Shown one piece after another: positions 19,734-27,400 of a stretch of 64,000 nt of DNA. The notes under the pieces are model-generated. The model worked only from the letters and a program-made list of their open reading frames with translations. It was not told the DNA's origin and did not search any database. The translations under genes were made by a program, and so were the position numbers. The DNA comes from Spirochaetia bacterium (GTDB lineage Bacteria > Spirochaetota > Spirochaetia > SZUA-6 > Bin103). The DNA lies in contig CBDBOV010000006.1 in the NCBI GenBank assembly GCA_965208575.1, forward strand, positions 1,472,001-1,536,000, in the 5' to 3' direction. The first letter of the stretch is position 1, and each line of letters opens with the position of its first letter.

Positions 19734-20932
19734 CTTGGCTCGACCTCACCGCGAGCGACCGCGACAAGATGCGGCGCGTGCTCGACCTGTTCAAGGAACG
19801 GGGAACGCTTGATGAGATGGGGCTCGGGAGCTTGCGTGACGCGCTCTCGGACGCCTTGTTTCCCGGAACCTCGTACCTGCAGACACGGTTGCGCTACATA
19901 TTGTTCATCCCGTGGATCTACCGGCGACTCGAAGGTCGGCTACGCGATCGCTCCAACGTTGCCGAGGCGGCGCGGCAGAGGGAGATTGGGCTGGTCGGCG
20001 CTCTGGAGCGTTCTCCCGAGACAGACGGCATCATCGGCGTGGTCGCCCGCGCGGCACTGGTACGGTTGCCCAGTTCGGTGTATTGGAATGCCCTTACTAC
20101 CTGGGGCATCTTTCAGCATCAGCAGAGTCAAGGTTGGTACCATTCGAACTTCGCGACGCTCGCTGGCGCTGAAAGCGTCGCCCGCGCCGACGACCCTGGA
20201 GTGGTGTGGAGTCATCAGCCGAATTGGCATCCGCGTCTGCCGGATGCGCCGGATTCGTTTCCCGGCGAGGCGTCGTTTGCATTAACTCGCGGGGAGGCGG
20301 ATTTCCTGCGCGGCCGTTTCGAGGAAAGGTGCTCCGGGACCCTGCTTGCATGGCTGGCGCGCAACGGTTCGGATACGCCCGCGGACAGTGTCTGGGACGA
20401 TCCCGACGCATTGCGCGCACCGAACGGTATTCGATGGACGGTCGAGCTGGCACGGAGGTTCTCACTGCACGTCGAAGGAATGCCGCTGCTCTACAACCTC
20501 CTCGTGGCCGAGCGCCGGAGTGACAAGCTTGGGTCGCAAGAAACCGAAACGATCGACAGATTCCGCGCGGAACTGGCCGAGTGGAGGGTGCGAGAATGCA
20601 ACGAGCCCCCGTACGAACCGGACAACTTGTGGCAGCTCCTGCACCGCACAGGTGTACGGCTGCGTTCTCCGCAACGCCTGTTCGTGGAGCGCTGGGGCCA
20701 GCGGCTCGCCGAGTTGGGTTCCGGTGCCGTTGCCGCCGACGGCTTGTTGCGGTCGCTGATCTATAACCGGGAGCTGCAACTCAAGGGGGCGCGGGCACGA
20801 CTGGCGAACGTCAACCGGTTGCTGGATTGGAAGCCGGGAGTCGGCGTGGGGCGCATGGACTTCCGCTGGGTGCGCGTCCGGCGGCTGCTGATCGACCTGC
20901 ACCGGGGCATCGGGTCCGATGCTGTCGCCTGA
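19718..20932 (+). CDS. DUF6361-like protein (first gene of an Azaca-like defence operon)
   Basis: WLD.......M...LF.E.GT.DE.GLG..RD..SD.LFPGTS..QTRLRY..FIPW, GIIG, RLPSSVYW..L, RE..LKG.RARL, M.FRW; coupled to the PLD and helicase genes. Confidence 0.75.
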   Translation: MEATLTWLDLTASDRDKMRRVLDLFKERGTLDEMGLGSLRDALSDALFPGTSYLQTRLRYILFIPWIYRRLEGRLRDRSNVAEAARQREIGLVGALERSPETDGIIGVVARAALVRLPSSVYWNALTTWGIFQHQQSQGWYHSNFATLAGAESVARADDPGVVWSHQPNWHPRLPDAPDSFPGEASFALTRGEADFLRGRFEERCSGTLLAWLARNGSDTPADSVWDDPDALRAPNGIRWTVELARRFSLHVEGMPLLYNLLVAERRSDKLGSQETETIDRFRAELAEWRVRECNEPPYEPDNLWQLLHRTGVRLRSPQRLFVERWGQRLAELGSGAVAADGLLRSLIYNRELQLKGARARLANVNRLLDWKPGVGVGRMDFRWVRVRRLLIDLHRGIGSDAVA

Positions 20933-22511
20933 CGCGCGCGCGGTGGCCTTCGAGCTGATCCGTGCACCGGACGGGTACCGGCTCGACTTCGCCGTACTGA
21001 CTACCTACACACTGGACCTGGAGGCGCTGCTGGTGCTTCCGCTATCGATCCTTGCCCACCAGGACGCAAGCATGGAGGAGTTGCTCGCCGATCCGGTCCA
21101 GCTTCATCAGGCTCTGCGCGATGCAGGCGACCGGGTACACGTCTTTGTCGACCACGCCGGCATCGGAGTTCCTCGTGCCGCCCGCGCGCTGTACGCGATG
21201 CTTGAACCGAGCGTGCATGGTGTGCGGGCACCAGGCCGCGGTTCATTCCACGCCAAAGTGTGGGTCGCCCGGTTCACGGTTTCCGGCGCTGCGCAGCAGG
21301 AGCGGCCGCCCCTGCTGCGGGTCGCGGTGTTGTCTCGCAACCTGACATTCGACCGATCCTGGGACATCGCGCTCGCCAGCGAGGCATCTCCCCGTGGGAA
21401 GAGGCGCTGTGCCGCAACCCGGCCGCTCGGTTCCTTTCTCGCCGCCTTGCCAGGGCTGACCGGCACACCGTTGGAGGAGCACATAGCGGCGCGGGTACGG
21501 GCGTTGGCCGAGGACACCGGGCGGACACGGTTCCCGGCGCCAGCCGGATTTGTGGATCCGGTCGAGTTCCACGTGCTGGGCCTGTCGTCGCGTCGCCGGT
21601 CGTGGCGGCCCAGAACACAGGGATATCGCACACTGGCCATCGCGCCGTTCGTGAACCGTAGCGGGATCGAGGCTGTCGTCTCGCTCGGCGGTTCTGAGCG
21701 GGTGCTCCTGAGCCGCGGTGAGGAACTCGACAAGCTGTCCGAGGACGCGCTCGACCGTTGGAGCGAGGTGCTGGTGCTGACAGACGCGGCACAAGACGAA
21801 CCGGAGGACGGCCACGTGGGCGACCGTGAGCCGACCGGCGGCGGCGGCGCGGTCGCCGGCGGACTGCACGCCAAGATCGTCGCGGTAGAGCACGGTTGGG
21901 ATGTCACCTGGTACGTCGGATCGGCGAATCTGACCGCGGCGGCGTTCGGCGGCAGCAACGTCGAGATGATGGCCTCCGTCACCGGACGGAAGGGACGGCG
22001 GAATGGTGTGACCGGTCATGGCATCGAGCGCTTCCTCGACGGCGACAGCGGGTTCCGCAAGCTATGCGAGCCCTATTGCCGCGGCGAGCAGGAGACAGAA
22101 CCCGCCGAGGTTACCGCGGCACGCCGGCGCCTGGAGGACGCGCGCGACCATCTCGAGCAGTCCGAACTCCACGTCGTGTGCGAGAATGCCGGCGAGACTT
22201 GGTCGTTGACCCTTGACGGCCGCTTGGCGGTGCCGGAGGAGGTCGCCGTCGTGGCGTGGCCGATCTCCATCCCCGAAAGTGAAGCGCGCGCGCTCGCCCT
22301 GCCGTTGAACTGGACGTTGCCGGTCGCACGGCTGACCGCGTTCACGGCGTTCCGCCTTGCGATCCGGGTGCCCGGAGTGGACGACATCCGTATGGCGCTG
22401 CGGCTACCCGCCACGGGTATGCCGGCAGATCGGATGCATCACGTGCTCAAGAGCTATCCCACCGGCCCCTGGGCCGGCGCAGTCATGAAAGAAACAAGGG
22501 TGAGCTATAGT

Positions 22512-22720
22512 GTGGGCAGAGTTCTGGGTGGAGCGCGAAAGTAGGCCGGCGCGTCACTGGCGTTACGTTCTGCGAACCCGTTCAAGAGCTTGGCCCCGGG
22601 GCGGGTGGCGTAGTCATTGGTGAGGTTGTCAGCCGGCGCGGCCGGGTGGCGATCATCCCGTTCAGGAGAATACCTGCTACACACGCCTTGGCCGCACCAC
22701 TCAGTCGTAGCGGAGGTTTC
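22512..22720 (+). ncRNA. Putative IS110 bridge RNA
   Basis: -10-like TATAGT at 22506-22511; TCAAGAGCT (22582-22590) equals the left target flank plus core; TCAGGAG (22662-22668) equals the element right end; RNA ends approximate. Confidence 0.75.
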
Positions 22721-24109
22721 ATGGCACGACGCAGACACAGACGCAAGGGCAAGGGCAGTCGCACAGCGCAACCAAAGGTGATGCACCCGGACGCTGCCGG
22801 CTTGGACATAGGCGCTACCGAGGTGTACGCGGCTGTGCGCCCGGAGCGCGACCCGGACCCGATCCGGAACTTTGCTACGTTCACCGCGGACCTGCACGCC
22901 TTGGCCGACTGGCTCAAGGAATGCGAGGTCACCACGGTGGCGATGGAGTCCACCGGTGTGTACTGGATTCCGGTGTATCAGATCCTGGAGGCACACGGCT
23001 TCGACGTGGTGCTGGTGAATGCGCGTCACGTGCACTCGGTACCCGGTCGGAAGTCCGACGTGGCCGACTGCGAGTGGTTGCGCTACCTGCACTCGGTGGG
23101 ATTGCTGCGCGGCTCATTCCGCCCTGCCGACGAGGTGTGTGCACTGCGCTCGGTGCTGCGCCATCGCGACACCTTGATCAAGATGGCGTCGCGCAGCGTG
23201 TTGCACATGCAGAAGGCGTACAGCCAGATGAACGTGCATCTGCACCATGCCATCTCTGACCTGACGGGGACGACCGGTCTGGCCATTACGGACGCTATCC
23301 TGGCGGGTGAGCGGGATCCGGCGCGGTTGGCCGCTCTGGCCGACCGGCGGATCAAAGCCAGCCGCGAGACCTTGATCAAGGCGCTGCAGGGCGACTGGCG
23401 CGCCGAGCACCTGTTGGCGTTGCGGCACGCGCGAGCGACCTATGCCCACTACCAACAACTCATCACGGAGTGCGATCAGGAAATCGAAGCCGGCATCCGC
23501 GCGTTCGAAGCCAGCAGCGAGCCACCCGGCGCGGTGGGCGACGACCCACCGGATGAGGGAATCGATGCGGAGCCCGAGGCGCCAACCGAGTCACCGGCCA
23601 AGCGGTTCGACCTGCGCGGCCACCTTACGCACCTGTTCGGCACTGACCTGACGCTGATTCCCGGCATCGGCGAAAGTACGGCGCTGGTTCTGTTCACCGA
23701 ACTCGGCCCGGAACTGTCCCGCTTTCCGACCGCACCGCAATTCGCCTCCTGGCTGCACCTGTGCCCCCACAACCAGATCACCGGCGGCAAGATCATCAGC
23801 TCGCACACCGGTCGGGGCACCAATCGGGCCGCCCAGGCGCTGCACTGGGCGACCCAGTCGTTGTACCGCAGCCCATCGGCCCTGGGCCAGCACTTCCGCC
23901 GCATGCGGGCGCGTCTGGGTACTCCCGAAGCGACCACTGCAGTCGCGCATAAACTGGCTCGGATCATCTACCATCTGATCACGCATCGCGTGGCCTACGA
24001 TGACAGCATCCTCGCCGCCGAGGAGCGCCAGGACCGGCGCCGCTTTGAACGCCGGCTCCGAAGGCAGGCACACGCACTCGGTTATGAGCTTGTCCCGGAG
24101 GCCGCCTGA
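22721..24109 (+). CDS. IS110 family transposase/recombinase
   Basis: GLDIG, AMESTGVYW, GRKSDVADCEW (DEDD RuvC-like), IPGIG, F..A..FASWL.LCP....TGGK, A.TAVAHKLAR; GGAGG RBS. Confidence 0.95.
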   Translation: MARRRHRRKGKGSRTAQPKVMHPDAAGLDIGATEVYAAVRPERDPDPIRNFATFTADLHALADWLKECEVTTVAMESTGVYWIPVYQILEAHGFDVVLVNARHVHSVPGRKSDVADCEWLRYLHSVGLLRGSFRPADEVCALRSVLRHRDTLIKMASRSVLHMQKAYSQMNVHLHHAISDLTGTTGLAITDAILAGERDPARLAALADRRIKASRETLIKALQGDWRAEHLLALRHARATYAHYQQLITECDQEIEAGIRAFEASSEPPGAVGDDPPDEGIDAEPEAPTESPAKRFDLRGHLTHLFGTDLTLIPGIGESTALVLFTELGPELSRFPTAPQFASWLHLCPHNQITGGKIISSHTGRGTNRAAQALHWATQSLYRSPSALGQHFRRMRARLGTPEATTAVAHKLARIIYHLITHRVAYDDSILAAEERQDRRRFERRLRRQAHALGYELVPEAA

Positions 24110-24426
24110 TTGTTGTTTCTCAGGAGCTTGCTGGACAGCCCAGATAAGTTCCTCCGCTTCTTGCGGGCGCTGCTTGGCGGCCTGGATGGCATGGTCGAGT
24201 GGACGCGCGCCGGCGGCGAGAGCGGTGCGTGGGGTGCGGGCGTAAGCGCCGATACGTTGCTGGACGACTTGCTGCGCGCCGCATCGCGCGATCCCAGCCG
24301 CTTGCAACCGGTGCGCCGATTGATCGATGACCTCCGCAAGACGGAGGGCGGGCGCAGGATCATTCCCGACGACCTGCTGGCCGTCTGGAACGCCGTAAAC
24401 GAAGCACTGGGGAAGGCGGGCGCTGC

Positions 24427-27400
24427 ATGAACCCGCCCGATGTCGAGACGATCCTGAAACCGCTGAAGCCGTTTCAGCGCCGTACCGTCGAACACGCGTT
24501 TCACCGCTTATTCGTTGCGAAAGACAGTACTGCCCGATTTCTGGTGGCCGACGAGGTTGGCCTCGGCAAGACACTGGTGGCGCGCGGCGTAATCGCCCGA
24601 GCCGTTAAACACCTTTGGGATGACGTCGAACGCATCGACGTCGTTTACGTCTGCAGCAACAACAGTATCGCACGGGCCAATCTGCCGAAGCTTCAAGTAG
24701 GCGATGCCGGCCAACGATCGTTTGCCCTTGCCACCCGCCTCACGATGCTGGCGACACTGTTCGCTTCGCCCGATGGGCAGTCCGGTCTCGCCGGTAACAA
24801 GCTGAACTTCGTCAGTTTCACGCCGGGCACGTCGTTCAACATGGGGCGCTCCGCCGGTCAGGCGCAAGAACGACAAGTGCTGTTTCACCTTCTGCTGCCA
24901 TGCTACCCCACCCGACGGACAGCACTCATGAATCTGCTGCAGGGACGGAAGGCCAGCAAGGATGACTGGCGTCAGCAATTGCAGAACGAGCCGTGTCCTA
25001 TCGAGCCGACCATACGGGAGCGCTTTGAGGCGACGTTCCGAGAACAAGCGGATCTACATGGCGAACTGCGTTCGCTTTTCGAGATTTGGTTCTTTCGGCA
25101 TCGGCAGTCGTGGCCGAATGAAGCCCAATGCCGCAGAGATCGGATCATATCACAACTGAGACGGATGCTGGCTGACGAGTGCGTCCGCGCCCTTGAGCCC
25201 GATCTGGTAATCGTCGATGAGTTCCAGCGCTTCAAGTCGTTGCTCGAATCCCGGGTAGAACGCCAGGATCCCGCCGCGGAACTCGCTCAGAAGCTGTTCG
25301 GTGCTCGGACGTCCGACGGACAAATGGTGCGGACGCTCCTCCTCTCCGCGACGCCGTACAAGCCCTACACCGCCGACGCCGAGATCGAGCAGGACGATCA
25401 CTACGAGGACTTCCTGGACACCACCCGTTTCCTCCTGGCGGACAATGACGCCCGCGTCGCGCAGATCAAACGTCGGCTGTCCCGATTTGGCACGGCGCTG
25501 AAGCGAGCCACCATCGGCGGACAGGATCACGAAAATGGGGTTCAATGCGCCAAGCTTGGTGTGGAGGACTCGCTCCGGGCGATCATGGTCCGGACCGAGC
25601 GCGTTAGGGCCAGCACCGAGAGGGATGCCATGTTGGTCGAGCGCTGTCGCCCCGTCGTTCCCACGCCAGCAGACGTGCGCCAATACTTGGTTGCTGATCG
25701 CCTGTATCGCGCTGTGGGCGACCAGGATCCCATGCCTCTCTGGAAGTCGGCCTCGTATCTCGCTCACTTCACGCAGGGCTACCGTTTCAACGAACGGCTC
25801 GAAATGGCGCTCGATCAGTCGCCGGATCGAGTGGCCCAGGTACTGCGCCGATATGAAAGTGCCTTCCTCGACGCCGAGAAAGTCCGCGAGTGGGCGAAAC
25901 TCGATCCGGGCGCCGCGAAGTTGCGTGACTTGGTGCGCGATCTGCTCGATTCGGGGCTGTGGCGCATGCTGTGGATGCCTCCCACGGTCCCGTACTGGCC
26001 GTTGGAGGGGCCGTTCAACGGGAAGCATGCTGCCACCAAACCCTGCTGTTCTCGGCGTGGAACGTGGTGCCCGATGTCGTGAGCGCCATTCTCAGCTACG
26101 AGGCGGAACGGCGGATGGTCGGCGGGAGGATCGCCTCGTACGAGAATCCTGCGGACCAGCAGAGGCCCTTGCTGCGGCTCACGCAGTCGACCTCCGGTGC
26201 GAGATCCCGACATCGTTTGCTTTTGCTGCTCATACCATGCCTACCGCTGGCTGATCGCGCACATCCCCTTGCAGGGCCAGACGGACTGGACCGGAGAGTT
26301 TGGGTGCGTGCCAGAGTAGAAGAGTTGTTGACAGACCCGACAATACCGGATCCCCAGGATGGAACCGTGGACGATCGGTGGGAATGGGCAGCGCCCCTAC
26401 TGCTGGATGAGGAATTGCGCGAGTTTCTGCGCATCTGGAGGAATGACGACACTCTGCATCCGCATCGCGAGGTGTTCACGGCATACATCGACGATTTACT
26501 TGCCATCGAACCGAATGATCTAGGCCGTCGGCCGCCACACCTTGCAGACTTGCTGACGGAGGTCGCTCTCGGCTCTCCGGCAATCCTTGCGTCGCGCTGC
26601 CTGGCCGCGTCCGTTGGTGTCAGCGCCGGCTTGCGCCGCCGACTCGCAGTGAAAGTCTCCCTTGCGTTTTGGACCCTGTTCAATCAACCCGCTGTTGTCT
26701 GTCTGCTCCGTCAACTCGCCGTCGGCGCCGCAGGGGATAGCGATGAGTCCGTATACTGGCGGCTGGTGCTCCGTTATTGCCGGCATGGCAACCTGCAGGC
26801 CGTGCTGGACGAGCACTGGCACCTGCTGTGGGAGCAGTGCGCGTGGTCCGAGCGCGAGACGCCCGGCGAGATCGCGGAGTTGTGCGCGTGTGAACTGGTC
26901 AACGCTGTCCGTCCCATCCGGTCACGGGTTCACGCGCGCTTTTTCCGACTTCGCAATTGCTCACATCCCGTGCCAGAAGAAATTCGGTTTCGCACGATTT
27001 TCGCCCTGCGATTTGGCCACGGTCGCAATGAGGAAGCCGGCTATGTAAGCCAGGATGCAGTGCGGAGAGCTTTCAACAGCCCGTTCCGGCCGTTTGTTCT
27101 CGCCAGCACTTCCATTGGGCAAGAGGGACTCGACTTTCATCCTTGGTGTCACCGCGTGGTGCACTGGAATCTGCCCGGCAATCCCGTCGACCTGGAACAG
27201 CGGGAGGGCCGCGTACACCGCTACAAGGGGCACGCGGTGCGGCGCAACATCGCAGCCGTCTACGCCAGCGACGCGATGCGAACCTGGTGTCTTGGCGACG
27301 CTCTCTGGGAGTTGATTTTCGAGCGCGCCGAAGAAGAGGCCCGGACCAACGGCGAGAACGACCTCGTTCCTCTGTGGATCGCACCAGGCCCGCACCGTGT

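Follow-up and report, generated by a model that had tools for sequence, protein, structure and literature searches.

An expanding IS110-family element with a predicted two-module bridge RNA in its left end and a putatively inverted polarity of genes relative to the crossover core

The window analysed here is a stretch of 64,000 nucleotides (nt) of the forward strand of contig CBDBOV010000006.1 (positions 1,472,001 to 1,536,000; Spirochaetia bacterium, assembly GCA_965208575.1), and its subject is an IS110-family insertion sequence of 1,673 base pairs (bp) that occupies positions 22454-24126 of the window and interrupts a ZacB-like gene. The gene for the recombinase of this element is preceded by a non-coding left end of 267 nt (22454-22720) and followed by a right end of 17 nt (24110-24126). 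The left end is predicted to encode a bridge RNA of about 180 nt, built of two homologous internal-loop modules, one of which, the first, would recognise the target in the genome and the other the joined ends of the element itself. The features of the element, in order, are the following.

22447-22453, + strand: target arm TCAAGAG, the last two bases of which (AG) are the crossover core; carried by 14 of 15 copies
22454-24126, + strand: inserted unit (CT ATCCC...CTCAGGAG), 1,673 bp, delimited by 15 copies, empty sites, the tandem period and a restored open reading frame
22490-22497, + strand: left arm of the subterminal inverted repeat, AGAAACAA, reverse complement of 24113-24120
22506-22511, + strand: TATAGT, a possible -10 box upstream of the RNA; TATAGT, TATACT or TATTAT stands at the same place in close relatives
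22524-22704, + strand: predicted extent of the bridge RNA body, closed by the outermost helix 22524-22535/22693-22704
22544-22595, + strand: target-binding module, outer helix GGCCG (22544-22548)/UGGCC (22591-22595), supported by helix covariation
within 22544-22595, + strand: inner helix of the target module, UGGCGU (22558-22563)/ACCCG (22576-22580), capped by a small hairpin
22549-22557, + strand: putative right-target guide, the loop 1 5' strand GCGCGUCAC, lying 5' of the left guide and pairing with the recombinase-sense strand to the right of the core
22582-22590, + strand: loop 1 3' strand, UCAAG-AG-CU, made up of the target arm, the core and a handshake-type dinucleotide identical to the first two bases of the element
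22596-22691, + strand: long-range helix CCGGGG (22596-22601)/CCUUGG (22686-22691), which encloses the donor module and has compensatory changes in five of its six pairs
22608-22617, + strand: loop 2 5' strand GCGUAGUCAU, the expected second donor guide, placed by homology to loop 1
22618-22660, + strand: inner helix of the donor module, UGGUGA (22618-22623)/UCCCG (22656-22660), near-invariant, with a variable cap hairpin
22662-22670, + strand: loop 2 3' strand, UCAGG-AG-AA, comprising donor arm, core and 2 nt; UCAGGAG is the right tip in 15 of 15 copies
22712-22716, + strand: ribosome-binding site GGAGG
22721-24109, + strand: recombinase gene, 462 amino acids (PF01548, PF02371, NF033542)
24113-24126, + strand: right end, in which the right arm of the inverted repeat, TTGTTTCT (24113-24120), overlaps the donor arm TCAGGAG (24120-24126)

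The recombinase belongs to the IS110 family, as the initial annotation had it: both PF01548 (E=6.4e-20) and PF02371 (E=1.5e-11) match, the NCBIfam model NF033542 ('IS110 family RNA-guided transposase') is matched with 251.1 bits against a cut-off of 140, and the DEDD/RuvC-like motifs D (GLDIG), E (MEST) and DxxD (SDVADCEW) are kept in all 14 relatives compared. The genome that carries the window contains 15 full-length copies of the element at 100% identity, together with fragments and one diverged, truncated relative, and the element is recently active and expanding. The left junction of the copy in the window is CTCAAGAG-CT/ATCCC (22446-22460) and its right junction is CTCAGGAG/CTTGCTGG (24119-24134), the slash marking the boundary. 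The string TCAAGAGCT lies immediately left of ATCCCACC, giving TCAAGAG followed by CT, in 14 of the 15 copies. The exception is the inner member of a head-to-tail dimer, the left side of which is the right tip of its neighbour, TCAGGAGCT (TCAGGAG). The right end is TTTCTCAGGAG (TCAGGAG) in all 15, and the period of the tandem dimer is 1,673 bp. A subterminal inverted repeat of 8 bp has its right arm abutting the donor arm and its left arm 36 nt inside the left end. All 27 related elements examined have such a repeat, 6-9 bp long, its arms placed 6 nt and about 36 nt from the element tips, and it covaries between clades (for example AAGGAACA/TGTTCCTT, AAGTAAC/GTTACTT and GATGAACA/TGTTCATC).

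All of the strings on which the initial annotation relied are present where it placed them (TCAAGAGCTTG at 22582-22592, TCAGGAG at 22662-22668, TTGGTGAG at 22617-22624 and GTAG at 22707-22710), TCAGGAG follows TCAAGAGCTTG at a distance of exactly 80 nt, each of these two is preceded by CCCGT, and the target arm TCAAGAG does differ from the donor arm TCAGGAG by 1 nt. The reconstructed empty site CTCAAGAGCTTGCTGG is also right for the window copy: exact removal of 1,673 bp restores a reading frame (VLKS/LLDSPDKFLRFLRALLGGLD) that corresponds to VLRS/LLDSPGKFLRFLRALLGGLD across the junction in two uninterrupted homologues, 64% identical, whereas with 1,671 bp removed the frame continues as nonsense. 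The proposal that CT is the duplicated core does not survive. The two bases after the right tip vary among the 15 copies (TG, CG, GA, CC, CA, AC and others) and are CT in only three. Empty sites, sought in genomes of the same genus and found mostly in one of them (G006), with flanks 92-98% identical, could be located for nine insertions; they are shorter by exactly 1,673 bp, and all nine consist of a single TCARGAG directly joined to the right flank, with CT at only one, namely where the right flank itself begins with CT. No empty site was found for two copies (L008, L012) in the four to five genus genomes searched, and none was usable for two more (L010, L011). A test of reading-frame continuity on all 15 copies with removal of 1,671, 1,673 or 1,675 bp was ambiguous, long spurious frames being common, and is superseded by the empty sites. 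Since the empty sites lack CT and removal of 1,673 bp restores the frame, CT belongs to the element, the inserted unit runs from CT to CTCAGGAG, and the element goes in between the G of TCAAGAG and whichever base comes next, adding 1,673 bp that start with CT; in the window copy alone its boundary could be slid by up to 5 nt because GAGCT is present at both junctions.

In keeping with the IS110 family, insertion is site-specific and the element has no inverted repeats at its very ends; what the two junctions share is AG only (GAG in the window element). Both guide segments also close with AG in every one of 39 aligned family members, and AG is the sole sequence common to target and donor across the family. 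Thus, the crossover core reads AG in the direction of the recombinase gene and CT on the complementary strand, and the CT beside it is the element's own first two bases. A sister element in another genome (G003) agrees: its five identical copies have the left flank TGTCAAG-CT, the right tip CTAAGGAG and the guides UGUCAAGCU and UAAGGAG, its left flank and right tip have only AG in common, and related empty sites are TGTCAAG joined directly to the flank; no empty site was found for two of the G003 copies (L102, L112). Models with TCA or AAG as the core were rejected on the strength of the A-type empty sites and the G003 empty sites.

The structure of the bridge RNA was derived from RNAalifold on 39 sequences and from manual reading of the alignment. 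In each module an outer helix leads to a 5' strand of 9-10 nt, then to an inner helix (near-invariant UGG(U/C)G with CCCG) with a variable cap hairpin, and then to a 3' strand that bears the guide. The outermost helix, read by eye and of quite different sequence in different clades, is excluded from the pair counts because the alignment there is off by one column. In the five aligned helices, with 24 pairs, 97.4% of the cells are standard pairs, compared to 24.7-53.1% when the partners are slid by one to three columns, and 13 of the 24 pairs change on both sides; in the inner helix of the donor module, two pairs covary (AU in 30 and GC in 9 sequences; AU in 35 and GC in 4). Of 500 shuffles, none reached the observed value on four of five measures, and the fifth measure, the number of further pair types, was reached by 154. 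Because the helices keep pairing through compensatory changes, selection appears to act at the level of RNA. The notion that the two loops arose by duplication stands to the extent that the modules are homologous in every family member, from which it follows that any duplication would be ancient; the CCCGU context and the AG that had suggested it are a conserved scaffold and the conserved core, respectively, and are no sign of a recent duplication.

The two segments of the left end that had been picked out as the target-side and donor-side guides are upheld in that role by the matches of the 15 copies and by covariation in the family, for which 52 related loci from public genomes and further ones from the genus were collected. 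The 9 nt between the first CCCG(U/A) and the conserved UGG differ by clade, with 22 distinct 9-mers (among them TCAAGAGCT, TGTCAAGCT, TGTGAAGCT, ACAGAAGTC, CGATAAGCG, CCCAAAGCG, TGAATAGCG and AATAAAGTC), and the counterparts of 22582-22590 in the homologues change together with their own junctions. The target-side 9-mer occurs exactly in the element's own left-end window in 13 of 40 elements and with at least 7 nt in 23 of 40, compared to matches of at least 7 nt in 13 of 816 control comparisons between elements with different guides. When the guide is anchored at AG, the fit to its own junction has no mismatch in 13 elements, one in 15, two in nine, three in two and four in one. The last two nucleotides of the guide equal the first two of the element in 37 of 40, with five types of dinucleotide (CT, TC, CG, CA and TT), and recur at the right junction in only two of 25. 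On the donor side, 32 elements have a complete gene, and in 27 of these the 7-mer that follows the second (C/U)CCG(U/A) recurs at the right tip, no more than 150 nt past the stop codon; a 7-mer of a foreign class occurs there in none of 634 comparisons. The match of 11 nt that had been claimed between guide and target is thereby cut down: 7 nt do match the target, but CT is the element's own first bases and the final TG, which belongs to the conserved helix strand UGGCC, is coincidental, so that 9 of the 11 matching bases are meaningful. The chance of the 11-mer is about 4e-4 (for an end of about 266 nt against a 16-nt site, at uniform base composition, by the analysts' own estimate) and that of the 7-mer alone is about 0.1, which is not unlikely; the real support lies in the 15 copies and the family covariation. 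Because CT is the start of the element itself, the CU of the guide behaves like the handshake guide of IS621.

The right guides are not those proposed in the initial annotation, which paired TTGGTGAG and GTAG with their targets only through G-U wobble. The former makes up the 5' side of the inner helix of loop 2 (UGGUGA pairing with UCCCG), hardly varies and is kept in elements with unrelated targets, so it is scaffold rather than guide; the latter (22707-22710) lies 3' of the structure, beside the ribosome-binding site, and is not conserved. The right-target guide maps instead to the 5' strand of loop 1. In an acidobacterial sister clade, the five central bases of this strand are the reverse complement of the first five of the right flank (guide/flank pairs GCCGA/TCGGC, GGGGA/TCCCC and GGCGA/TCGCT), and the mean pairing over 23 elements is 4.15 of 5, with 12 elements at 5 of 5, compared to 2.06 over 342 mismatched pairings, one of which reaches 5. 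For the second donor guide, GUAG in GCGUAGUCAU can pair with CTAT at the left tip of the element.

The interpretation of these data depends on IS621 of E. coli, in which, as described in sections of PMC11208160 and PMC11208158, each loop consists of a stem, the left guide, a stem-loop and the right guide; the left guide repeats the sequence of the top strand through the CT core, and the right guide is the complement of that core together with the right arm. Two handshake bases come next, which bind positions 6-7 of the partner DNA once the strands have been exchanged. If the element is read with the complement of the recombinase-sense strand on top, the core of the present element becomes CT and the order of each loop becomes a same-sense guide, a stem-loop, and a complementary guide with core and a handshake of 2 nt. 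From that side, UCAAG-AG-CU would complement, in turn, the right arm, the core and two donor bases that adjoin the core. Since the flipped frame gives the loop order of IS621, the mechanism would be that of IS621: the RNA would pair with both strands of the target and of the donor; a tetramer of the DEDD/Tnp recombinase would exchange strands at the core; and after the exchange the CU of the guide would pair with the donor bases beside the core. The element is thus read as a recently active member of the IS110 family with a two-module bridge RNA in its left end and an IS621-type mechanism, in which the polarity of genes and RNA relative to the core would be inverted compared to IS621. The probability of this reading is put at about 0.85.

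Several observations weigh against it. The inverted polarity rests on homology with IS621. Folding of the single sequence is no better than that of shuffled sequences (z about -0.1), although folding is uninformative for a sequence so rich in G+C; a search of Rfam gave no family at E up to 10 in 22300-24300; and a scan for consensus promoters and terminators found nothing. In the one metatranscriptome run with coverage (X18), reads of a variant 95-99% identical reach only parts of its recombinase gene and none of the left end, and raw RNA runs X21 and X22, with 0 reads, are no test of expression. Between the loop 1 5' strand of the window element and the 14 independent right flanks of that element the fit is weak, with p=0.0085 in only one of the six registers tried; the preference of these flanks (C at +1 in 10 of 14, G at +2 in 8 of 14) agrees with the weak fit of GCGCGUCAC (YG). 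For the second donor guide, a test over the whole family gave no significant signal (longest common substring 3.69, compared to a background of 3.28), and the 2 nt after the donor guide equal the first 2 nt of the target in only three of 25 elements. The residue aligned with the catalytic Ser241 of IS621 (YESG) is Thr354 (QITGG, codon 23780-23782), in an alignment that is weak (22 bits). Thr is also found at this position in the relatives G003, L023 and L047, and Ser in L022, L025, L049, L050, L051 and an element of a Citrobacter plasmid; the Thr-bearing elements appear to be active because they are present in multiple identical copies. Finally, at three of the nine empty sites (L135, L078, L084), G006 has TCAGGAG in place of TCAAGAG, and every left junction in the present genome carries A.

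The simplest reading of these three sites, plausible but not proven, is ordinary polymorphism with insertion only into A alleles. At two of them (those of copies L007 and L009), the difference between A and G would be a synonymous change at the third codon position if one particular frame of the two long ones at the site is the real gene; at the third (L015), the left flank is not collinear with G006. A possible alternative is insertion that tolerates a mismatch, followed by resolution of the heteroduplex. Excision footprints were considered as a source of the G at position 6 in G006 and are unlikely, given that the 15 copies do not differ from one another and are hence young.

Of the other explanations, the one that survives best keeps the polarity of IS621 and takes AG, cut on the sense strand of the recombinase gene, as the true core, the loops being circularly permuted relative to IS621, so that the right guide is 5' and the left guide 3', and the left guide extending 2 nt into the donor. 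All of the sequence facts are equally compatible with it, and Siddiquee et al. (PMC11187229), in the section that concerns the reversed order in IS1111, treat that order as a possible mechanistic difference. It is nevertheless judged unlikely, as the flipped frame puts the CT core, the invariant AG, the covarying handshake and the conserved G after the outer helix into place all at once, an argument from parsimony rather than a test. Very improbable is the explanation that the internal copies of the end sequences are sites in DNA, such as the subterminal repeats that bind a protein in many transposons, and not guides in RNA. No RNA has been observed, and the element does have a true subterminal inverted repeat; yet the first segment covaries with flanking host DNA outside the element, both segments lie in loops framed by helices with compensatory changes, and the protein is of a family for which guidance by RNA has been shown experimentally in the work described in PMC11208160. 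The original form of the proposal, with the layout of IS621 in the sense frame, a duplicated CT core, a left guide of 11 nt and right guides TTGGTGAG and GTAG, is almost certainly wrong, its fit to the window copy being owed to a right flank that happens to begin with CTTG, whereas CT is absent after most right tips (present in 3 of 15 copies) and from eight of nine empty sites, TTGGTGAG is a conserved helix strand, GTAG is not conserved and the right-target guide maps elsewhere.

With the inverted polarity as the preferred reading, the element can be placed among known systems. It resembles IS621 in its DEDD RuvC-like and Tnp domains, in a long non-coding end upstream of the recombinase gene with a short right end, in two pseudo-symmetric loops for target and donor with guides that would pair with both DNA strands including the core of 2 nt, in a position of 2 nt beside the core that matches the other partner in the manner of a handshake, and in an insertion that duplicates only the core, insofar as these traits are described in the cited sections on IS621. 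It differs in that the protein has only weak similarity (E=1.3e-7 to 8wt6) and is 462 rather than 326-328 amino acids long; in that, in the frame of the gene, AG is the core and the left guide comes after the right guide; in that the long, well-specified arm is on the 3' strand and a long-range helix nests the donor module; and in that a subterminal inverted repeat of 6-9 bp is present and Thr stands at the position of the catalytic Ser. Only with the opposite strand on top do the CT core and the guide order agree with those of IS621. According to sections of PMC11187229, seekRNAs of the IS1111 type carry their two target-matching segments in the opposite order to those of the IS110 type. With the IS1111 elements described there (ISEc11, ISKpn4 and ISPa11), the present element has in common that a segment complementary to the top strand precedes the matching segment and that subterminal inverted repeats are present; in contrast, their non-coding region is downstream of the recombinase gene and not upstream, and their repeats are of 11-13 bp with extensions of 7 and 3 bp, compared to 6-9 bp at 6 and about 36 nt from the tips. 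A few relatives of IS1111 with an upstream non-coding region, such as ISMtsp17, are mentioned in the same source.

The bridge-RNA principle is already established for the family, and the findings leave it unchanged; a reversed guide order is known as such, and it is combined here with an upstream non-coding region. Bridge RNAs have been predicted in 85.7% of IS110 and 93.0% of IS1111 elements (Durrant 2024, PMC11208160, section 12), and a catalogue of 32,190 predicted bridge RNAs comprises 86 covariance models (bioRxiv 10.64898/2026.10.21.760802, section 8); according to the sections of these two sources that deal with such predictions, many structures deviate from IS621 and yet covary with target and donor. 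A literature search found no paper on a circularly permuted bridge RNA, but it was not designed to establish that inverted polarity is unpublished. The clade extends over a sponge- or coral-associated genome, Acidobacteriota, Alphaproteobacteria and enterobacterial plasmids. It may tentatively be proposed, with the odds against it, that the clade represents a third, undescribed arrangement of bridge RNA, which would join an upstream RNA like that of IS621 to a polarity and guide order of the IS1111 type, a short, covarying subterminal inverted repeat that flanks the donor site, a donor loop nested in a long-range helix, Thr in place of Ser at the nucleophile position in several apparently active members, and an essentially one-armed, self-regenerating targeting that builds tandem arrays. 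In that case, one-armed targeting would consist of RNA pairing over 7 nt plus flank positions read by something else. Bridge RNAs underlie programmable recombinase technology, so natural variants are design material. What is offered in this respect is a family, compared here in about 40 members, with a putatively inverted polarity of gene to core, a dinucleotide of the handshake type backed by covariation outside IS621, a natural alternation of Ser and Thr at the nucleophile position, and preferences in the flanks for which no guide accounts. It took 15 copies and nine empty sites to read the core and the handshake position, which are unreadable from a single copy.

The choice of target was assessed over the whole genome, which holds 346 TCAAGAG sites: 14 are occupied, 15 are the guide itself and 317 are free. 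Occupied and free sites were compared by Fisher tests, uncorrected, over 18 flank positions, with the following enrichments.

Flank position -1: C at 11 of 14 occupied sites, frequency 0.29 at free sites, p=3e-4
Flank position -4: T at 8 of 14 occupied sites, frequency 0.15 at free sites, p=4e-4
Flank position -6: A at 11 of 14 occupied sites, frequency 0.31 at free sites, p=5e-4
Flank position -8: T at 7 of 14 occupied sites, frequency 0.13 at free sites, p=1e-3

No segment of the RNA accounts for these four preferences. With so little demanded of the right flank (Y, then G), the specificity of the element comes down to the 7-nt arm together with flank positions -1, -4, -6 and -8. Since the right flank is barely read and the element begins with C, a usable TCAAGAG-C remains to the left of every inserted copy; when another copy enters this renewed target, the product is the dimer found on contig C4 of the present genome (G000; 1265899-1269242; copies L003 and L011). 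The inner junction of this dimer, CTCAGGAG-CT-ATCCC, is the same as the predicted circle junction, and re-insertion into the regenerated target explains it equally well. Many occupied sites encode Leu-Lys-Ser (CTC AAG AGC) in frame.

The insertion also has a consequence for the host, in that the expanding element has probably knocked out a candidate anti-phage gene. The two genes concerned are as follows.

20919-24430, + strand: interrupted ZacB-like gene in two parts, 20919-22453 and 24127-24430 (PADLOC ZacB, E=3.5e-136)
24427-26082: ZacC-like helicase gene, the next after the ZacB-like gene (PADLOC ZacC, E=6.1e-158)

The element interrupts the ZacB-like gene after codon 512, and uninterrupted homologues of this gene are present in two genomes of the same family. 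The candidate anti-phage locus has probably been inactivated by the element.

With respect to the copies of the element, its coverage in the contigs of run X1 is about 195x, compared to about 23x for the flanks, and no element joints were found in these contigs. They break within the element at 23691-23693, with unrelated sequence on each side; something may have inserted into one copy, or that sample may contain a rearranged copy. In G000, positions 51409-51817 of contig C2 (L016, L018) are the decayed 3' part of another copy, 94-95% identical, situated about 300-400 bp past the right end of the full copy at C2:52107-53778.

Further observations concern relatives of the element. A locus of genome G005 (L095, contig C2, about 196323-201019) is a tandem array of two variants about 81% identical to the window element, in which the target guide of each variant (TCAGGAG and CTAGGAG) matches the right tip of the other (TCAGAAG and TTAGGAG) except at one base. 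The acidobacterial clade (L025-L065) inserts into the semi-conserved, partly palindromic sequence GGATTAGTCC...AAG/TCGGC..., which resembles a repeat of the REP (repetitive extragenic palindromic) type, the usual kind of target for the IS110 family. A Citrobacter freundii plasmid (NZ_OW967265.1, 89602-92306; L149) encodes a recombinase 46% identical, with the same RNA layout upstream (CCCCGU-AAAAAAAC-AUGG and AUCCCGU-UCAGGAAG) and an IS66-family gene adjacent, and this recombinase gene is identical across many plasmids of Citrobacter, Enterobacter and Serratia.

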